DNA of 33,689 bases, from positions 1 to 33,689 of IMG/VR virus record IMGVR_UViG_3300035187_003302, one strand, 5' to 3'. Of the stretch, positions 1 through 32,747 are shown in pieces (positions within the stretch are counted from its first letter, which is position 1; every line of letters begins with the position of its first letter). The position numbers were made by a program, and so were the translations under genes. The notes under the pieces were generated by a model, which was not told the DNA's origin, did no database searches, and saw only the letters and a program-made list of their open reading frames with translations. This stretch comes from a virus. Its lineage: Duplodnaviria > Caudoviricetes.

Positions 1-127
1 CGGTTGGAAAGCGCGTCTACGGGCGGGCTTTCGCTGGCCGATGCCGAGCGGGCGTTGTCGCTCTTCTCCCGCGCCGCCGGGTGACTTGTCAAGCGTATGT
101 CAACCGCTTGACGGGCGCGGGGTGCGA
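1..127 (+). repeat. Terminal overlap copy 1 (identical to 32664-32790); 3' end of terL plus early promoter -35
   Basis: Bases 1-127 match 32664-32790 exactly; first mismatch at 128/32791. Confidence 0.95.
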
Positions 128-136
128 ACATATGGT
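86..136 (+). promoter_or_regulatory. Sigma70-type early promoter, allele A, with upstream TGTCA repeats
   Basis: TTGACG (108-113), 17-bp spacer, TATGGT (131-136); upstream TTGTCA-N6-TGTCAACCGC also present at the minus-strand promoter 23789-23816; followed by a hairpin and AACAGGAG SD. Confidence 0.8.
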
Positions 137-179
137 GTTCGTGTTCGGGGCGGTGCGCCCCGGCGAACAGGAGCCGACC

Positions 180-368
180 ATGACTAACACCAACCTCCGC
201 ACCCTCGCCATTGAAGCCGGCGGCGCCGGCGACTACGCCACCGTGGCCCTCTGTTTGCTGGCCATCGGCCGCCGCCGCGCCGACATGCCGGCCCACATCC
301 GCGCCGCCTGCCCCCCGCGCATCCGCGCGGCCGGCGCCCGTCGCGCGCTGAAAGCGAACCGCGCATGA
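180..368 (+). CDS. Small early hypothetical protein (cassette allele A, 62 aa)
   Basis: AACAGGAG SD before ATG 180; stop overlaps the yqaJ-like start (ATGA). Confidence 0.7.
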   Translation: MTNTNLRTLAIEAGGAGDYATVALCLLAIGRRRADMPAHIRAACPPRIRAAGARRALKANRA

Positions 369-23816: not shown

Positions 23817-25604
23817 CTAACCAGCCACGTCTTCGAGCACGGCCCGCGGGAAAACGTAGCATCGAGCCTGCAATCCCGCGATGCGCACGTTCCGCGTGGC
23901 GCGCCCTTGCGCGTCAGGCAGAAGCCAACCGCGCGCAAGCCATTCGCCGATGACGGCGCCACGGTCGGCGCTCGCCTCCGTTAGCCAGCGGTCCAGCACA
24001 TCCGGGCGCACGGCCACCTGCGCCCACGCCTCCGTGGCATCCCACGCGCCGGCCCACCCGTCCGGCGGCGGGTCCGCGGCGGCCGAATGCCAGAAGCGAT
24101 GGCGGGCGGCAACAGCGCGGGTCCAGACCGCCGCCAAGGTGGCGCGCGGCTTGTCGGCGTCCTGGCCGCTGCGCCGGGCGCCTTCGAGCGCGACAAGGAC
24201 CGCCGCGTATTCGCCGCCATCGGCAACGGGCACGGGGAAGCCGGCGTCCGTCATGGCCTCCGCAGCCAGCCGAAGAGACGCCACAGCCGCGCCCAAGCGC
24301 CCGGCGACGGCTCCCGCGTCCGCGGCAAGCTGCCCCGCGTAGTGGTCCCGGAGGTCGGCCCACCGCGCGCGCACGGCGTCCGCCCCGCGGGCGAGCGCCC
24401 ACCGGATGACCGCCGGCCCGGCGTGGCCGTAGTGGGGCGCGCGACACTCCGGCCCGATGATGCGCGCGATGGCGGCGGCGCGGGCGGCGCCGTCGGCCCC
24501 CAAGGGCTCGCCCCGGACTACGATGGTACGGGCGCGGGCGCCGTCGTCTTTCGGCGCGTAGCTGGTGATTTCGGCCTCCCCCGTCGAAAGCATCCACGAA
24601 CACCACGATGCCGAGCGTTGGACGCCGGTCACGGTCCCCCGGCCTTTGCCGATGCCGCTGGCGTGGACGTAGAGGGTGCTCCCGATGGTTGCTTCCCGCT
24701 CCCGTTCGGGGACTTTCTTGCTATCGTCCAGCATGACGGGAAGATGTTTGAGGGCGGCGGCGGCGCGCTCTTTGTATGTCGCGGTGCCGGTCCAGGGCAT
24801 GATGTAGCCCTGTTCACCGGGGCGCCCCCAAACCGACGCAGCGACGTTTAGCGCCGTCGTCTTTCCGCGCGAAGTGTAGCCGCAGATGTCGAGAATCCAT
24901 CCCACCTGCGAATAGACGGAGACGAGAGGGGACGCGGCGGAAGCCAGGATGGCAAGCCAAACGATGGGGAGGTCGGCCAGCACCGGCCCAAGCTGCCGCC
25001 ACCCGTCCGGGGTGCCGGCGCTCCCAACGGCGTGGACGGGCGCGGGGAGGTCGGGGGCGTAAAGCTCGACCGCTTCGCCCCCGGCTTCCCCGATGCATTC
25101 GCTCCCGAAAATGAAGCCCGCGAAATCAGGGCCGGTCCACCCGCAGCGGCGCGCGACCCGGCCAAGAGGCACTTCGTCAGACTCGGCATAGGCGCCGATG
25201 TATTCGACAACCCCGCGCGCGTTGACTGACGAGACGGGCAATCCGTCATCGGCCAGCGCCACAAGCTTGCGGCTGTCAAGGAACGCCGACCGGGGGCGCG
25301 TGATGCTGCGCCACCCGCGGCCATCGTGCCAGCACACTTCGAGCATCGCGGCGCCATCGTCAATGTCCACGATGCGCCGTTGGACGTGGACCGCGCGCGG
25401 GCAGACCATGAGGAAACGGGAGCCGTTCTCGTCTCTCGTCTCTTTCCAGACGCCCGATTCATCCACCGCCCACCCGCCGGGCGGCGGCGCGACGTGGCCG
25501 GGCGGGGCGAAGGTCGGCGGCGCCTCGCCCGCGGGCACAAGCCGGGGCCGGGTGACGGGCGCGGGCTCGTCTTCCACGAAGAAATCATCGATGCTGCTGC
25601 TCAT
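23817..25604 (-). CDS. DUF927-type replicative helicase / ATPase
   Basis: N-terminal W.VDESGVW...V.RRIVDID DUF927-like region; Walker A GYTSRGKTT, Walker B VMLDD, LSTGE, GARAR, HYGHAG; AACAGGAG SD. Confidence 0.85.
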   Translation of the reverse strand: MSSSIDDFFVEDEPAPVTRPRLVPAGEAPPTFAPPGHVAPPPGGWAVDESGVWKETRDENGSRFLMVCPRAVHVQRRIVDIDDGAAMLEVCWHDGRGWRSITRPRSAFLDSRKLVALADDGLPVSSVNARGVVEYIGAYAESDEVPLGRVARRCGWTGPDFAGFIFGSECIGEAGGEAVELYAPDLPAPVHAVGSAGTPDGWRQLGPVLADLPIVWLAILASAASPLVSVYSQVGWILDICGYTSRGKTTALNVAASVWGRPGEQGYIMPWTGTATYKERAAAALKHLPVMLDDSKKVPEREREATIGSTLYVHASGIGKGRGTVTGVQRSASWCSWMLSTGEAEITSYAPKDDGARARTIVVRGEPLGADGAARAAAIARIIGPECRAPHYGHAGPAVIRWALARGADAVRARWADLRDHYAGQLAADAGAVAGRLGAAVASLRLAAEAMTDAGFPVPVADGGEYAAVLVALEGARRSGQDADKPRATLAAVWTRAVAARHRFWHSAAADPPPDGWAGAWDATEAWAQVAVRPDVLDRWLTEASADRGAVIGEWLARGWLLPDAQGRATRNVRIAGLQARCYVFPRAVLEDVAG

Positions 25605-26821
25605 GGCTTTCTCCTGTTCGGGATGGTGAAGCGGTCCAGCGTCGCGGCGATGGCGGCGGCGTACTTCTCCCCCGGGCCGTCCGCGTCCGTCGAAATCTGA
25701 ACCAGCGTAGCGTGTCGGAGGGTCGCCGCGATGTCAAATCCGGGGCCGTCGGCGGGCCATGCGCCCTGCCAGACTCCGAAAACCGCGTCCACCTCGTAGA
25801 ACTCGCCCGACTTGGCGAGCCGCAGGCGGCCGTCGGCGGTGGCCGCCCGGAGGAAATCGGGGCCGCCCTCGACAATGACGGCGCGGCCAGACCAAACCAC
25901 GGAGCCCGGGGACCAATCCCGGCCGCAAAGCACGGGGTCACCGGGGCGGAAGGCGCCCCCGCCGCGAAGGACGGAGACGGCCGCGGGGTCGGCGTAGACC
26001 GCGCCCCGGCATCCGCCGCCGATGGGCGAGACTTCCTTGGCATCCGGGCCGGCGTAGGGAAGCCAAGAATCACCGCTCCAACGATGCGGCCCCCTCGGCT
26101 CGCCATCGGCCGTCCACGCGCACCGCCGCGCCCGGAGCGCCACAAGCTCCCCGCGCGCGTCGTAGACCGGGAGCAAGAGCGGCCACCCCTCGCCCCACGT
26201 CACCCGGCCTACCCGCGCCCAATCGGGCGGGGCGATGATGGTATCGCCCACCTCGCAGACGCCGGGCGGGCAGACCCGCGCCACCGAAAGTGACCGCGCC
26301 CGGGCGGCGCGCGCCACGGGGTCGCCGCGCCATCCGTCGCGGGCCGAACGGGCGGCCCACCACCCGGCGGCGGCGCCGGAGTCGCAGGGCCACGCGGCGT
26401 CCCACAGGGCGGCCACCTGGGACGCGGGAAGCCGTTCGGGCGGTGCCGGGGGCGGCTCGGGAGCGCGGGCGATTGTGGGGGCCTTCTTGGCCTCTCCCGG
26501 GGCGTGGGCGTATTCGCACAGGCCAAGGGATGCGCAGAGGTCGCGCAGGCGCGGCCAGTCCGCGGACCCGGCCCGGAGGTCGGCGCCGATGGACGCGGCG
26601 GCGACTTCGAGCGCGCCGCCCTTCGCTTGGCAGGCGTGGCAATGCCACGCGCGTCCGAGGTCGGCCACCGGGGGCCGCGGGTCCGCGCCGCCCCGCCGGG
26701 TTGCGCCGCAGGCCGGGCACGGGCCGAACGTCGTGCGGCCGTGCGCCGTTCGGGCGGGCAGTCCGAGCCCCGCCACCGCGCGCGCCACGGGCGCCTGTCG
26801 CACATCGTCAATCCATCCCAT
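25601..26821 (-). CDS. Primase (zinc finger plus TOPRIM)
   Basis: GPCPACG...WHCHAC..GG zinc-binding domain; IVEGGPDF and TDADGPG TOPRIM motifs; GAGGTG SD. Confidence 0.85.
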   Translation of the reverse strand: MGWIDDVRQAPVARAVAGLGLPARTAHGRTTFGPCPACGATRRGGADPRPPVADLGRAWHCHACQAKGGALEVAAASIGADLRAGSADWPRLRDLCASLGLCEYAHAPGEAKKAPTIARAPEPPPAPPERLPASQVAALWDAAWPCDSGAAAGWWAARSARDGWRGDPVARAARARSLSVARVCPPGVCEVGDTIIAPPDWARVGRVTWGEGWPLLLPVYDARGELVALRARRCAWTADGEPRGPHRWSGDSWLPYAGPDAKEVSPIGGGCRGAVYADPAAVSVLRGGGAFRPGDPVLCGRDWSPGSVVWSGRAVIVEGGPDFLRAATADGRLRLAKSGEFYEVDAVFGVWQGAWPADGPGFDIAATLRHATLVQISTDADGPGEKYAAAIAATLDRFTIPNRRKP

Positions 26822-26838
26822 ACGCACCTCACCGGGGA

Positions 26839-26867
26839 AGGGTAGCGCGGCGCCCGGCGCCCGTCAA
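26839..26867 (-). promoter_or_regulatory. Promoter for primase-helicase
   Basis: TTGACG-17-TACCCT; the -35 contains the methylase stop; shares 17 bp with the promoter at 27797-27825. Confidence 0.75.
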
Positions 26868-27790
26868 CCGAGCAGCGCCGTCACGAACTGCGCCGCGATT
26901 TGCGGGACGATGGCATTACCGTAGCCCCGTAATCGTCCCACGCGGGCGGGTATCCCATCAGCCAGCGGGAATGTTCCGGGTCCAACCGGCCGCCATTTCC
27001 CATCCCGGCATCCGAGCCAATCAGAATCCGCCCATCCGCTGTGAGTCGCGCGGGGCCTTTCGCCTCCCACGCCACCCGGCCGAGCAGCCCGTTCGGCGGC
27101 GCCGTCCCGTCCGCTGCGCCGTCCTTCCAGTCGCGCGTCGTGGGCGTCGGCCATCCCGCCGCCTGAGCTGCCGCCGCAAGCGTAAGCCCCGCCCCGTTCC
27201 CGTTGTGGTGCCGCTCTCGCATCCGGTCCCGGCGCGCTTGGTTCGCCTCCCACGGCTGGCCGTCGTTCATCGCCCCGGCGTCCGGCGTCGGCCACGGCGC
27301 CCCAGTAAAGGCGCTGTCGAAGATGCGGCGCACCGACCCCCGCAGCGCACAAATCGGCGGCCCCGACGGCATATCCCAGACCTTCCAAGTCAAGGCGTAC
27401 AGCGCAGAGCCAGTCAAGCCCGGCGCGGCCCGCAACCTGCTCTCCAAGGACGATTGCAGGGCGGCACTCCGCGACGAGGCGGCGCATTTCGGGCCAAAGG
27501 TGGCGCTCGTCGGCGGTGCCCCGGCCTTTCCCTGCAACGGAAAATGGCTGGCAGGGGCAGGAACCGGTCCAGACGGGCGCATCGTCGGGGATGCCGGCAA
27601 GTCGGAGGGCGAGGGGCCAGCCCCCAATTCCCGCGAAGAAGTGAGCTTGGCGGTATCCCACAAGGTCATCTGGACGGACATCGGCGATGCTCCTTTCGTC
27701 CACGTCGCCGGCCGGAAGGTGGCCGGCGGCAATCAGGGCGCGCAGCCAGGCGGCGGCGAAGGGGTCGTGTTCATTGTAGTAAGCGGGCAT
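26864..27790 (-). CDS. DNA cytosine-C5 methyltransferase, alpha chain
   Basis: FFAGIGG (I), GSCPCQPFSVAG (IV), EQV (VI), HLRQRLYW (VIII), GYGNAIVPQ (X); motif IX absent. Confidence 0.92.
   Translation of the reverse strand: MPAYYNEHDPFAAAWLRALIAAGHLPAGDVDERSIADVRPDDLVGYRQAHFFAGIGGWPLALRLAGIPDDAPVWTGSCPCQPFSVAGKGRGTADERHLWPEMRRLVAECRPAIVLGEQVAGRAGLDWLCAVRLDLEGLGYAVGAADLCAAGVGAPHLRQRLYWGAVADAGRRGDERRPAVGGEPSAPGPDARAAPQRERGGAYACGGSSGGGMADAHDARLEGRRSGRDGAAERAARPGGVGGERPRATHSGWADSDWLGCRDGKWRPVGPGTFPLADGIPARVGRLRGYGNAIVPQIAAQFVTALLG
26881..27681 (-). CDS. Overlapping-frame beta chain of the C5 methyltransferase (266 aa)
   Basis: AAAGGAG SD 8 nt before ATG 27681; two WPTP units and RLDPEHSRWLMGYPPAW (motif IX). 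Confidence 0.75.
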   Translation of the reverse strand: MSVQMTLWDTAKLTSSRELGAGPSPSDLPASPTMRPSGPVPAPASHFPLQGKAGAPPTSATFGPKCAASSRSAALQSSLESRLRAAPGLTGSALYALTWKVWDMPSGPPICALRGSVRRIFDSAFTGAPWPTPDAGAMNDGQPWEANQARRDRMRERHHNGNGAGLTLAAAAQAAGWPTPTTRDWKDGAADGTAPPNGLLGRVAWEAKGPARLTADGRILIGSDAGMGNGGRLDPEHSRWLMGYPPAWDDYGATVMPSSRKSRRSS

Positions 27791-27796
27791 GCTGGC

Positions 27797-27825
27797 AGGG
27801 TAGCGCGGCGCCCCGTAGCCGTCAA
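27797..27825 (-). promoter_or_regulatory. Promoter for C5 methylase (leaderless)
   Basis: TTGACG-17-TACCCT; ATG 27790 begins 7 nt after the -10. Confidence 0.75.
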
Positions 27826-27829
27826 GCGG

Positions 27830-28280
27830 TGTAGCAGGGCGCTACTACGTCTCGACGGGGCGTGAGATAGCGAAAGCCAAGGAACGACCGGCACGGCGCC
27901 GCGCAGCGGCACTCCCCTTCTCTCTCTCTTTCTCTATACCTTTTATGCTACTGCTACACTTGCTACGCGCATGCTACCAGGGGGACGGTAGCACGATACA
28001 CGTAGTCAAAGCGTCATTTTCGGCGCTGCTACACCTGCTACGCCAAAAACACATACCCCTTCGCGCGCGCGACCCCCGGGCCCCTCCTCACCCCTCCTTC
28101 TCCCCGTTACATATGTACCCTTTTCCGGTAGCGCGTAGCAGAGCGTATCTGCAACCAGCACCCTCCCGGATTACGCCGACCGTCCGCCGCGTTTCGGCCG
28201 GCCCAAGTGATACCGCGGGAGTGTAGCAACAAGGTAATACCCCTGTCGCCGCTACCTGTTTCTGGTAGCAGAGGCGCCCC
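27830..28280. other. Putative replication origin / divergent control region
   Basis: Non-coding, lower GC, pyrimidine tract 27912-27944, many TGCTAC/GTAGCA hexamers in both orientations, 18-bp near-repeat at 27951-27968 and 28026-28043. Confidence 0.6.
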
Positions 28281-29708: not shown

Positions 29709-29854
29709 CCACCGTTGCTACGTGCTGCCGCTGCGGGCAAACCTTCATGGCGCCCGCCGAATACTTCGCCGCGTGGTGCTCCCCGGATTGCGAGCTTGAC
29801 GCGCTCTCCGCGCCCGCGCCCGCGCCGGAACCGACGGGGGAAGTCAACGAATGA
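29705..29854 (+). CDS. Small zinc-finger protein (49 aa)
   Basis: CxxCG..F...WCSxxC motif; 4-bp overlaps. Confidence 0.6.
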   Translation: MTTVATCCRCGQTFMAPAEYFAAWCSPDCELDALSAPAPAPEPTGEVNE

Positions 29855-30933
29855 CCTGTCCCCTCTTTGTCGAGTTGTGCGCCGGCACCGCCGCGCTTAG
29901 CCTCCGGCTTCACCGCCGCCACGCCCGGCCGCCCGTCTCCCGCATGGGGGCGAAGACCGGGTACGCGGATGCCATCCTCCGGGTGCTCGGGCTTCGGCCA
30001 GGCCAAGGCGCGGCGCACTACCTCTGGTGTGAGCCTGACCCCGGGGTGCGGCTCTTGTTGGAGGCCTACCGTGACCCTGGCTTGGCTCAGGAGGCGGCCG
30101 CCATCATCCGCGGATGGGTTGACGAAGAGCCCCGGGCGCTGTGGGAGAGGCTACGGGCAGAGGGGCCGCCGCGGGGCGTGGAGGCCGGGGAGGTGGCGCG
30201 GTGGGCGCGGCTCATCACCGCGAACCGACTTATCCCCGGGCGGTGGGCCGACGATGGGCGCTGGGTCAACGCGGCACGCGATGGTGGCGAGCACACTATC
30301 GGCGGCGTGTCTTTCGGCGGGGATGAGTTCTGCACCCCGGCCGTGGACCTTGCGGCCAAGTTCGAGGCCAGCGTCGGCGACATGCCGGCGATCGTGGAGG
30401 CCGACGCCCGGCGCGTGGACCCGCGGGAGGTGGCGCGGTGGCTCAATATCGAAGCGTGGGTCAATAATGGTCGCTACATGGGTCCAGACAGGCCGGCGGC
30501 GCGGCGCGCGGTTGACCCGGGTTGGGTTGCGTCGCTTACCGGTGTCGGGCTTGCTTGTCGCACGGATGACCTCCCCACCCTCCCCGCCACCATCACCCCC
30601 GACGCCCGCGGCATCGAGCCCGGCCCCGACCTCCCGCCCGGAACGGTCGCCTACATGGACCCGCCTTACGTGGGGACGACTGGCTACGGTCACGACCTCC
30701 CGCGCTCGGAGGTGGTCGCCCTTGCCCGGCGGTGGGCGGACGCGGGGGCAACGGTCGCCATCTCCGAGGCTGAGCCCATCGCGGACCTCACCGCGGAGGG
30801 CTGGCACGCCGTCCGCGTGGACGGGGAGCGGGCAGGCAGCAAGCGCACCTTCTCGAAGCAGCAGGCGGAATGGGTCACGATGAACCGCCCGCCCGCATGG
30901 ACACCACCGGAACAGCGGGGGCTATTCGCATGA
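29851..30933 (+). CDS. Dam-like (D12-class) N6-adenine DNA methyltransferase
   Basis: FVELCAGTAA (I), RMGAK (X-like), YMDPPY (IV), VAISE. Confidence 0.8.
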   Translation: MTCPLFVELCAGTAALSLRLHRRHARPPVSRMGAKTGYADAILRVLGLRPGQGAAHYLWCEPDPGVRLLLEAYRDPGLAQEAAAIIRGWVDEEPRALWERLRAEGPPRGVEAGEVARWARLITANRLIPGRWADDGRWVNAARDGGEHTIGGVSFGGDEFCTPAVDLAAKFEASVGDMPAIVEADARRVDPREVARWLNIEAWVNNGRYMGPDRPAARRAVDPGWVASLTGVGLACRTDDLPTLPATITPDARGIEPGPDLPPGTVAYMDPPYVGTTGYGHDLPRSEVVALARRWADAGATVAISEAEPIADLTAEGWHAVRVDGERAGSKRTFSKQQAEWVTMNRPPAWTPPEQRGLFA

Positions 30934-32747
30934 CGCCCGCCGAAATCCTCCGGCTTCCGCTGGCCGACCTTGTGACGGCCGCCGCCGCGTCGGGCCCCGC
31001 CGGGCTGGCGTGGCTTCGGTTCCGCTGCGACCGCGACTTGGCCGCATACATGGCGCTTTGCTGGCCGGGGATTGCCGCCGCGCCCTTCGCCCCGTCGCAC
31101 CGTGCCATCTTGGCTTGGTTCGATTCTCTGCCGCCGTTCGACCTCCGCGCCGCGCAAGCCGGGGCCGATGCCGAGGCCGACCCCATCGCGCGGTCGGCGT
31201 GGGAGGCGCCGCGCGGGACCGGCAAAACCTCGGTTGCGATTGCTGCGCTTGACCGGGCGGTGCGTTCGGGCCGTGAACCTTACGTCGTCATCATCGGCCC
31301 GGAGTCCGCGCACGCATCCGCGCTTTCCGTCTCGCTCCAAGCGATGCTGAGCCCCGGCCACCCCGCCGCGTCGCCGATGCTGGCCGCGCTCTATGGCGAC
31401 GTGGGATGGACCGGCAACATGGGCGATGGCGCGGTCAAGCGTGGGGCCGTCCTTGGCTTCCCCGCGGGCGTCTCCTATGTCTCCGTCCGTTCGATTGGCG
31501 GCACCATCCGGGGCCTTCTTCGTGGGACGCACCGGCCAACGCTGGTTCTCCTTGACGACCTCGAAAAGCCAGACGACGTGGGCAGCATGGCCGCGCGCGA
31601 TGCGATGCACGAAAAGCTGAACTCGGACGTTCTAAACTTGGGGCCGCAGGGCGGCGGCTTGGCGGTCTGCCTCATGGCGACCCGGCTTCACCCCGACGCG
31701 GTGTCGGCGCGTCTCCAACGTGACCCGGCTTGGGATGGCGCGTCCTTCCGCGGGATTGTGCGTTGGCCCGTCGGCGTCGAATCGGGCGAAATCCAGGAGG
31801 GCAGCCGATGGGCGGAATGGCGGGCGCTCCTGACGGACCCGGCTTCACCCGCCCGGGAGCGCGAACGCGCCGCCCTCGACTTCTACCGGCAGCACCGCGA
31901 CGAAATGGACGCCGGGGCCGAAGTGCTCGACCCTCACCGGCTTCCGCTGTACCGGGCGATGCTCCGGCTTGTTTCGATTGGGCTCCCGAGCTTTCTGAAA
32001 GACGTACAGAACGCGCCGATTGCTTCGGGCGGCGGCGCATTCCGCCCCGATTCGTTCCGGTGGTGTACGCTGGACGGGCGGGATGTCGTCATTGGCTACG
32101 GAGACACCGCCCGGCGCATCCCCCTTCCGGCTTTCTCCCGCGCGGTGGTCCACCTCGACCCGACCACAAGCCGCAAGAAGGGCAGCACCGCCCGCGACTT
32201 CGCCGGCTTCGCCGTGGTGGCGATGCGAGACGACCGCGCGACGGGTGAACGGCTGTACGTGGTGCTCGAATGGTCGGCCGTCCGCGAAGAGCCCGAAGAC
32301 CAAGCCGAACGGGCGTGGGCCGCGTGGGCGCGGTGGCGGGCCGCCGGCATCCCCGCCGTGGAGGTCATCTACGAAAGCAACGGCGGCGGGGGCGCCTGTC
32401 TCCAAGGCGAATACCACGCCGATATGCGCCGCAAACGCAAAGCCGCCGGCCTCCCGTCCACGATGGAGCCCGTCGCCATCCACGAAACCCGGGCTAAGGA
32501 CGCCTGCATTTCCGGCGTGGTTCCGCTGCTGAATAACGGCGTGGCCGTGCTTTCGACCGCCATCCGCTCGCATGAGGGCGGCCGGGAAGCTCTCCGGCAG
32601 ACGGAGGCATGGCCCGGCGGCGCGCATGACGACGGCCCCGATGCGCTGGCGAAGGCGCTGCTTCGGTTGGAAAGCGCGTCTACGGGCGGGCTTTCGCTGG
32701 CCGATGCCGAGCGGGCGTTGTCGCTCTTCTCCCGCGCCGCCGGGTGA
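30930..32747 (+). CDS. terL: Terminase large subunit
   Basis: Walker A APRGTGKT, IRG, Walker B VLLDDLE, ATRLH.D, QN.P, nuclease HLDP and HDDGPDAL. Confidence 0.92.
   Translation: MTPAEILRLPLADLVTAAAASGPAGLAWLRFRCDRDLAAYMALCWPGIAAAPFAPSHRAILAWFDSLPPFDLRAAQAGADAEADPIARSAWEAPRGTGKTSVAIAALDRAVRSGREPYVVIIGPESAHASALSVSLQAMLSPGHPAASPMLAALYGDVGWTGNMGDGAVKRGAVLGFPAGVSYVSVRSIGGTIRGLLRGTHRPTLVLLDDLEKPDDVGSMAARDAMHEKLNSDVLNLGPQGGGLAVCLMATRLHPDAVSARLQRDPAWDGASFRGIVRWPVGVESGEIQEGSRWAEWRALLTDPASPARERERAALDFYRQHRDEMDAGAEVLDPHRLPLYRAMLRLVSIGLPSFLKDVQNAPIASGGGAFRPDSFRWCTLDGRDVVIGYGDTARRIPLPAFSRAVVHLDPTTSRKKGSTARDFAGFAVVAMRDDRATGERLYVVLEWSAVREEPEDQAERAWAAWARWRAAGIPAVEVIYESNGGGGACLQGEYHADMRRKRKAAGLPSTMEPVAIHETRAKDACISGVVPLLNNGVAVLSTAIRSHEGGREALRQTEAWPGGAHDDGPDALAKALLRLESASTGGLSLADAERALSLFSRAAG

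Follow-up and report, generated by a model that had tools for sequence, protein, structure and literature searches.

Two nested reading frames occupy one gene of the viral contig IMGVR_UViG_3300035187_003302, which was analysed as the whole IMG/VR record (a linear sequence of 33,689 bp, with a CheckV completeness of about 35%; hereafter, the window). Frame A, on the minus strand, encodes alpha, the core of a C5 DNA methyltransferase. Frame B, the +1 frame of frame A, is open from 27732 to a stop at 26881 and encodes beta, which is predicted to begin at an ATG 109 nt downstream of the first ATG of alpha and covers 87% of alpha. That both frames encode proteins under purifying selection is close to certain. 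Most likely each nested frame is translated on its own, and the two resulting chains are predicted to come together as a single phage C5 cytosine methyltransferase, with beta as its recognition half. An initial annotation, made from the letters of the window, had proposed a two-chain enzyme of this kind, and the nested frame is present as it described, with its own Shine-Dalgarno (SD) site, two WPTP units and the segment RLDPEHSRWLMGYP.

An open second frame under selection

The second frame is open far beyond chance across the relatives of the gene. These relatives were collected by similarity to alpha alone, which avoids a sample biased toward an open beta frame, and came from 162 sources: 80 loci on genome contigs, 80 on viral contigs, the locus of phage K1G and the window. 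A complete alpha open reading frame (ORF) was present in 160 of the 162, and the 152 with an alpha of 240-380 aa formed the test set. Eight loci were left out because alpha was truncated (L143, L114 and L073), only 233 aa (L032) or long (L020, L067, L133 and L076). The +1 frame contained an open run of 212-338 codons, or 0.69-1.0 of alpha, in 152/152 relatives with G+C contents of 0.49-0.70, and the longest +2 run was 32-143 codons. The initial annotation had turned on whether homologues keep the beta frame open, and all of these do.

Stops in the +1 frame were counted from alpha codon 45 to 12 codons before the end, with synonymous-codon shuffles of alpha as the null. No +1 stop fell in this interval in 109 of the 152 loci (5.4 expected from the shuffles), and the equivalent count for the +2 frame was 0/152. 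A test based on the longest +1 run, in which the maximum of 100 shuffles was exceeded in just 86/152 loci, was dropped in favour of the stop count because the amino-acid make-up of alpha already disfavours +1 stops.

In principle, frame B could be a shadow ORF that arose by chance in a G+C-rich gene, or the locus could be a pseudogene with a frameshift or an artefact of assembly. On the side of chance, 10% of the shuffles of the window, which is 70% G+C, leave the +1 frame stop-free (P ~0.10), a third long ORF runs on the opposite strand at 26290-27834, and 43/152 loci contain one or two +1 stops inside the fixed interval, near its edges. The open frame of the window is thus not significant alone, and the comparative data from the relatives decide. 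The frame is also open in loci at 49-55% G+C, for which the shuffle P0 is ~0.002; the beta protein is conserved, with E values of homologues down to 1e-159; selection acts on the frame; and alpha is unbroken over its whole length in the 152 relatives. The open frames in relatives, the stop-count test and the synonymous constraint on both frames led to the rejection of all three explanations, which are extremely unlikely.

Selection was mapped by the entropy of alpha third codon positions at conserved degenerate residues and by the entropy of the three codon positions in a beta-based codon alignment. Beta residues are numbered on the 266-aa form; numbers from the codon alignment (S255 and R99 below) are counted from an upstream TTG and are 17 higher. 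Over alpha residues 1-80 the alpha wobble positions vary at 1.75-1.81 bits, and over the first 40-odd residues of beta the beta second positions, which are the alpha wobble positions, vary at 1.4-1.5 bits; both values indicate constraint on alpha only. Alpha wobble entropy is 0.67-0.94 bits at residues 101-160 (V119 0.06, L135 0.0, G143 0.14 and A150 0.13), where both frames are constrained. Across beta 124-223, the WPTP region opposite the alpha linker, beta third positions are the most variable (1.5-1.8 bits at the WPTP codons) and the constraint is on beta only; the highest entropy in the alpha linker region thus falls at beta third positions, i.e. the region has the codon periodicity of the beta frame. 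Both frames are constrained again at alpha 261-280 (wobble 0.57 bits, with P271, L276 and A277 at 0.0). The constraint fades over residues 281-300 (1.16 bits overall, 1.6-1.8 bits at residues 291-299), and the one site from residue 301 on, at 1.98 bits, is of the alpha-only kind. Conversely, conservation of alpha coincides with frozen beta third positions (e.g. S255 at 0.14 and R99 at 0.0 bits), and in the motif IX-like segment of beta all three codon positions are low.

The overlap is thereby split into four regimes: alpha-only constraint over beta 1-47, dual constraint, beta-only constraint over alpha 166-252, and alpha-only constraint from motif X. Dual constraint is limited to approximately alpha 84-165 and 253-290, together ~360 nt. 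The ~800 bp of dual coding in the initial annotation thus stands as a translational overlap of 801 nt, and is reduced to less than half of that as simultaneous constraint. RNA structure or an internal promoter was rejected as the cause, since neither would give a pattern that tracks both codon phase and the amino-acid conservation of beta.

Alpha, beta and the WPTP cassettes

Alpha is the predicted catalytic chain, and motifs I, IV, VI, VIII and X all lie in it at the places given by the initial annotation (Table 1). Nearly its full length matches phrog_363 in PHROGs (residues 2-306, aligned with positions 10-312 of the 327 in the profile; E 1.5e-82), and its match to the Pfam family PF00145 is limited to residues 67-163 (E 2.2e-14). 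An AlphaFold model built from 92 sequences has a predicted local distance difference test score (pLDDT) of ~90 over residues 1-175, below 50 over residues 175-253 and 80-95 in the terminal helix (residues 296-307). When this model was searched with Foldseek, chains of M.HhaI ranked first (E 1.3e-7) among 78 matches at E<=1e-3. In a profile alignment, alpha 71-170 corresponded to M.HhaI 72-175 (E 2e-16), with PCQ, EQV/ENV and RxR paired. The linker between the two ends of alpha (residues 166-252; pLDDT 32-50) has no conserved columns among relatives. The middle of alpha had been called shadow-like, and its hypervariability, pLDDT below 50 and beta-frame codon periodicity bear this out.

The region before motif I is unlike that of M.HhaI. 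Alpha 37-67 aligns weakly with M.HhaI 3-33 (7.5 bits), and M.HhaI 34-71, which contains motifs II and III, is without a counterpart in alpha, in which just ~20 residues separate motifs I and IV. In the AlphaFold model an additional strand-helix-strand-helix element (residues 3-43) precedes the motif I strand, and this element appears to replace the II/III segment of M.HhaI. The initial annotation had placed a motif II-like strand here. The gap relative to M.HhaI and the modelled element support it indirectly; the likeness to motif II was not recovered by sequence, as a phmmer search of PDB sequences with alpha 1-39 returned 0 matches and BLASTP of alpha 1-45 against a relative with canonical order gave E 11 and no motif II likeness.

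Three of the loci with long alpha, L020 (1500-2994), L067 (1491-2982) and L133 (1500-2847), carry an in-frame insertion of 120-190 residues between FPLA.G and RVGRLRGYGNAI. The insertion begins exactly where beta ends, and its start is CxxC-rich in L020 and L067. It may be mobile; insertions with a hidden out-of-frame HNH have been described in actinophage methylases (PMC11855218).

Beta belongs to a large family. Among 8000 sequences scored, 3355 matched it at E<=1e-3, and the homologues listed are without a Pfam domain and mostly unnamed. A profile of 89 beta sequences, searched against 1.84 billion sequences, matched 25,529 cluster representatives at E<=1e-3, 14,548 at <=1e-10 and 8,698 at <=1e-30. 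Alpha relatives saturated their search (8000/8000 scored at E<=1e-3), with PF00145 in 120/120 among the matches listed. In PHROGs, residues 21-268 of the 283-aa form of beta lie on positions 9-281 of 329 of phrog_1008 (E 7e-26), and beta also matches phrog_31772 (E 2e-21). The window beta had no match in Pfam, and the ESM Atlas gave none that was usable for beta. Modelled alone in AlphaFold it folds poorly (mean pLDDT 59.6), with residues 1-67 disordered and a helix and hairpin at residues 68-117 scoring 72-87; comparison of this model with 48,161 chains by VIA-align gave a best Z of 2.9, i.e. no match. The N-domain nonetheless has invariant L, G, T, W and R columns, and in the motif IX-like segment L, P, W, G, P and W are invariant. 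A regular expression for motif IX matches 140/152 beta frames.

Proteins longer than 467 aa that match beta number 53 and are mostly long betas with many WPTP units. In-frame fusions include PF01555 (N4/N6 DNA methylase) in two (P0249 and P0288) and HNH in several, which would be hard to explain unless the frame is translated. In P0244, a beta of seven units, an HNH-like insert (HAHH...CVFCH) immediately precedes the C-terminal tail.

The WPTP tetrapeptides of the window beta are at residues 130 and 177. Units of the form W[PASTNM]T[PT] were counted in 329 beta-like proteins, among which long ones had been deliberately included, and ranged from 0 to 9 per protein: 15 proteins had none, 74 had one, 110 two, 63 three, 44 four, 11 five, 3 six, 6 seven, 2 eight and 1 nine. 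The window and locus L082 differ by cassette exchange. Their gene flanks are ~96% identical (the first 495 nt contain 18 differences), and the segment encoding alpha 166-252 has 67 differences and 49 gap columns; unit 1 of the window is replaced by two different units in L082, and the last unit is identical. Each cassette presumably reads a DNA target. Single-linkage clustering of 799 units by BLASTP placed 714 in one cluster and so gave no typing of the cassettes.

The same nested pair is present in named phages. In phage K1G both products are annotated, ORF31 as a "C-specific methylase" and ORF30 as an "Mte8-like protein". Paenibacillus phage vB_PlaS-1/A, of low G+C and with the canonical N-terminal order, has a gene that matches phrog_363 (E 7e-88) and a +1 ORF that matches phrog_1008 (E 8e-74) and the beta profile (hhalign E 1.2e-11). 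Gene 58 of phage N15 (L164:575-1222) contains an unannotated 215-aa +1 homologue of beta with LTWK, WNTP and LNPHHSRWLMGLP, the frame of which opens just before the constrained part, downstream of the equivalent of the leader. A blastn search with N15 gene 58 matched 63/5426 E. coli genomes, 0 of them over 80% of the query.

Table 1. Positions of the two coding sequences (CDS), their parts and their candidate expression signals in the window. AdoMet, S-adenosylmethionine; res, residues.
Feature	Position	Strand	Remarks
Alpha CDS (frame A)	26864..27790	-	308 aa; C5 DNA methyltransferase core with disordered middle
Beta CDS (frame B)	26881..27681	-	266 aa from ATG at 27681; wholly nested in alpha
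AdoMet-binding and catalytic domain	27296..27790, alpha res 1-165	-	pLDDT ~90; candidate motif II/III-like segment (1-36) precedes motif I
YYNEHDPF	alpha res 4-11	-	ahead of motif I
Motif I FFAGIGGW	alpha res 51-58	-	conserved among relatives
Motif IV PCQPFS	alpha res 79-84	-	catalytic Cys80 in PCQ
Motif VI GEQV	alpha res 116-119	-	aligned opposite M.HhaI ENV
Motif VIII APHLRQRLYW	alpha res 154-163	-	RQR
Hypervariable linker	27035..27295, alpha res 166-252	-	out-of-frame shadow of the beta WPTP region
Alpha C-part W..DWL.CRDGKWRP..PGTFPL..G.P.RVGRLRGYGNAIVPQ	26867..27034, alpha res 253-308	-	invariant columns; ends in motif X helix
Motif X GNAIVPQ	26900..26920, alpha res 291-297	-	G291 and N292 invariant
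Beta leader	27541..27681, beta res 1-47	-	predicted to be translated, without protein-level constraint; pLDDT <50
Beta N-domain LQSSLESRLRA...LTWK...ICALRGS	27295..27540, beta res 48-129	-	helix and hairpin; overprinted on alpha motifs IV-VIII
Beta WPTP unit 1	27154..27294, beta res 130-176	-	from sequence
Beta WPTP unit 2	26989..27153, beta res 177-231	-	extends to motif IX
Beta motif IX-like RLDPEHSRWLMGYP	26947..26988, beta res 232-245	-	overlaps alpha P..PGTFPLADGIP
AAAGGAG SD-like site	27690..27696	-	8 nt before beta ATG; alpha codons GAA-AGG-AGC (E32 R33 S34)
Promoter-like TTGACGG-N16-TACCC	27798..27825	-	with the next T, -10-like TACCCT ends 6 nt before alpha ATG

Proposed initiation and assembly of the two chains

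The initial annotation had traced the SD-like site of beta to a rare AGG codon of alpha, and this was confirmed and recurs. The site is encoded within a V-D-E-R-S-I motif of alpha, in which the Arg codon is AGG in 50/135 homologues (10.4% of all Arg codons are AGG) and the Ser codon is AGY in 94/135 (45% overall); AGG followed by AGY produces GGAG, and the next Asp-Val of alpha (GAT GTn) provides an ATG in the +1 frame. An SD-led ATG was found 29-71 nt before motif I in 119/156 loci, in 71 of them at the position used in the window.

The window alpha is without an SD site, and an SD-like site precedes alpha in 85/155 homologues. Upstream of the window alpha is a promoter-like sequence (Table 1), a second exact copy of which (26840-26867, minus strand) overlaps the alpha stop and precedes the next gene (25601-26827). 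At up to two mismatches it has 7 matches in the window, a number reached by 0/100 shuffles, and the same sequence precedes alpha in L082 (80% identical). A scan for the sigma-70 consensus around the gene found 0 promoters. The repeated sequence may be a phage-specific promoter, and from its spacing to the ATG a leaderless alpha is plausible in this lineage.

By analogy with M.EcoHK31I, we infer a two-chain enzyme. Alpha would be translated from the first ATG and carry the AdoMet-binding and catalytic parts, with an unstructured linker joining its two ends, and translation of beta, in the +1 frame, would start on the same mRNA at the internal SD-led ATG. Beyond its leader, beta would consist of the N-domain encoded over alpha motifs IV-VIII, the two WPTP cassettes encoded over the linker and the motif IX-like helix encoded over the segment before motif X. 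Alpha would then serve as the large domain and beta as the small one, which recognises DNA, with neither active alone. The enzyme would methylate the DNA of the phage itself against host restriction, and swapping of WPTP cassettes would alter its target sequences or add to them. Such a pairing is supported by the complementary content of the chains, as alpha folds as the large domain of M.HhaI with residues 175-253 disordered and beta alone folds poorly.

Several observations weigh against this assignment of parts. Alpha retains a conserved FPLA.G.P at the position of motif IX (FPLADGIP in the window) and might keep part of the function of motif IX; the initial annotation, in which alpha lacked the motif, was right in that the better pattern is in beta. 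The motif IX expression does not match 12/152 beta frames. The putative motif IX of beta is identified from a short pattern, and the hhalign pairing of RLDPEHSRWLMGYP with an in-frame counterpart, EFYEWLMGLPRGW in gp80 of Mycobacterium phage Fushigi, was weak (E 0.0035, probability 9%). Pfam searches with 89 beta sequences gave scattered matches only (E >=0.005), none of them relevant, and the beta profile had 0 matches at E<=10 among PDB sequences. In Fushigi the parts are also distributed differently. Residues 192-285 of gp80 (L162:991-2040) match the C-terminal part of phrog_1008 (E 2e-31) and include EFYEWLMGLPRGW, followed by LGNGVVPQ, and a 104-aa +1 ORF (L162:1265-1579) with LLPTPLARDSKG matches the N-terminal part (E 8e-14). 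The motif IX part is thus in frame with alpha here, and the +1 frame has only the N-terminal part of beta. This layout links the C-terminus of beta with the place immediately preceding motif X and shows that frame assignment is evolutionarily plastic among lineages, which keeps recoding formally in play.

Recoding would take the form of a single chain produced by two programmed frameshifts, one to +1 after motif VIII and one back before motif X, to give an enzyme with motifs I-VIII, a target recognition domain, motif IX and motif X in canonical order. The beta-like motif IX and alpha-like motif X of Fushigi gp80 do lie in one frame, and in the window just 6-7 codons lie between the motif IX tryptophan of beta and the GNA of alpha. 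Such a chain is nevertheless improbable. Upstream of any such shift site, the beta frame stays open and conserved over ~80 codons in which alpha synonymous sites are frozen, and the SD-led +1-frame ATG recurs among loci. Alpha 253-290, which the frameshifts would leave untranslated in the alpha frame, is conserved to the point of freezing beta wobble positions. Gene callers give a free-standing beta in at least 8,698 clusters, and PF00145 occurs in just 1/53 of the longer beta relatives, an odd chimera.

The other alternative is that beta is a real protein that shares the DNA with alpha without being a methyltransferase subunit: it might act in regulation, against restriction or in some other DNA-binding role, for example. 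It is consistent with the failure to detect a Pfam or PDB relative of beta and with a beta model that alone matches nothing. It is also unlikely, given that beta occurs only inside these methyltransferase genes and that no folded recognition domain exists in alpha at the very place where the conserved cassettes of beta lie. Beta ends in L-x-P-x5-L-x-G-[YF]-P-x-x-W, a pattern that immediately precedes motif X in single-chain relatives; both beta families carry the label DNA methyltransferase in PHROGs; some betas are fused to a second DNA methyltransferase domain; and M.EcoHK31I is a precedent for a subunit of this kind.

Known systems, significance and the surrounding contig

The single-chain enzymes M.HhaI and M.HaeIII (PF00145) share with the window enzyme their fold, motifs IV-VIII and the catalytic PCQ, and differ in that the recognition domain and motif IX of the window are not in the catalytic chain and the motif II/III segment is missing. 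M.AquI is a natural heterodimeric C5 methyltransferase, the subunits of which are encoded by adjacent genes and not by nested frames. The multispecific C5 methyltransferases of Bacillus phages carry several recognition domains in a row (PMC12707154). They resemble the window enzyme in being phage orphan methyltransferases with a variable number of tandem recognition-like units, and are unlike it in being a single chain in one frame.

In M.EcoHK31I, according to PMC2836561, beta lies entirely within another frame of alpha and both chains are required for activity; alpha contains motifs I-VIII plus motif X as well as the recognition domain, and motif IX is on beta. The initial annotation had pointed to this enzyme for its alternative-frame beta chain with motif IX. 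The N-terminal part of its beta is partly dispensable, and internal AUGs of the beta frame can initiate. The window pair is alike in its nested, selected beta ORF, in an alpha with motifs I, IV-VIII and X, and in a beta with motif IX at the level of pattern. M.EcoHK31I (E. coli HK31, YGGCCR) belongs to a restriction-modification system, whereas the window gene is a phage orphan. Its recognition domain is in alpha; in the window the conserved cassettes belong to beta, and the part of alpha opposite them is a disordered shadow. The window beta is also unlike the M.EcoHK31I beta in spanning 87% of alpha with a conserved N-domain overprinted on the catalytic motifs. The M.EcoHK31I alpha begins MKKKPLKQ (translated from primers) and the window alpha M.AYYNE, and the M.EcoHK31I beta begins MQNSS and ends NWTLIDSEQ (primer-encoded), different from the ends of the window beta. 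These differences suggest that M.EcoHK31I is not a close relative, on a comparison of the ends alone.

The window alpha and beta are members of phrog_363 and of phrog_1008 and phrog_31772, respectively, all annotated "DNA methyltransferase". The records of K1G, N15, Fushigi and vB_PlaS-1/A do not link the two products as one enzyme, and those of N15, Fushigi and vB_PlaS-1/A annotate alpha only. Literature searches, with REBASE and subscription journals outside their scope, found no description of the double coding of this family. A layout proven once, in M.EcoHK31I, is here common to thousands of phage genes, and its pairing in these families is apparently undescribed.

Among prokaryotes and their viruses, long gene pairs fully nested on one strand, each product of which is under selection, are to our knowledge rare. 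We put forward tentatively, at somewhat less than even confidence, that this is the largest and longest same-strand double-coding family known in prokaryotic viruses, in which the recognition half has moved to the +1 frame, acquired an N-domain to dock on alpha and become a set of exchangeable cassettes (0-9). If so, the shadow of beta serves as the linker of alpha, and the phage could re-aim or multiply its anti-restriction methylation with the catalytic chain untouched.

Thousands of phage and prophage genes retain the nested pair, and routine annotation often calls alpha only, as in N15 gene 58 and E. coli genome entries. The beta subunit family (25,529 representatives, no Pfam model) is consequently left "hypothetical" or missed. 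Alpha expressed alone in a search for its target would, by analogy, probably be an inactive enzyme. The cassettes of beta offer a testable way into the question of how phages change methylation specificity, and the region-by-region selection map provides a clean natural case of two proteins sharing codons.

Elsewhere in the window, the minus strand carries a primase/helicase gene at 23817-25604 (phrog_8841, E 3e-77), and the plus strand the gene for the large terminase at 30870-32747. The long plus-strand ORF opposite the methyltransferase gene (26290-27834, 514 aa) spans the whole locus, is rich in Arg and Pro and resembles a G+C-driven shadow. Just upstream of the terminase gene, a 360-aa ORF (29851-30933, plus strand) has a weak match over residues 261-354 to phrog_56, "DNA methyltransferase" (E 2.7e-4), and may be a second methyltransferase in the contig.

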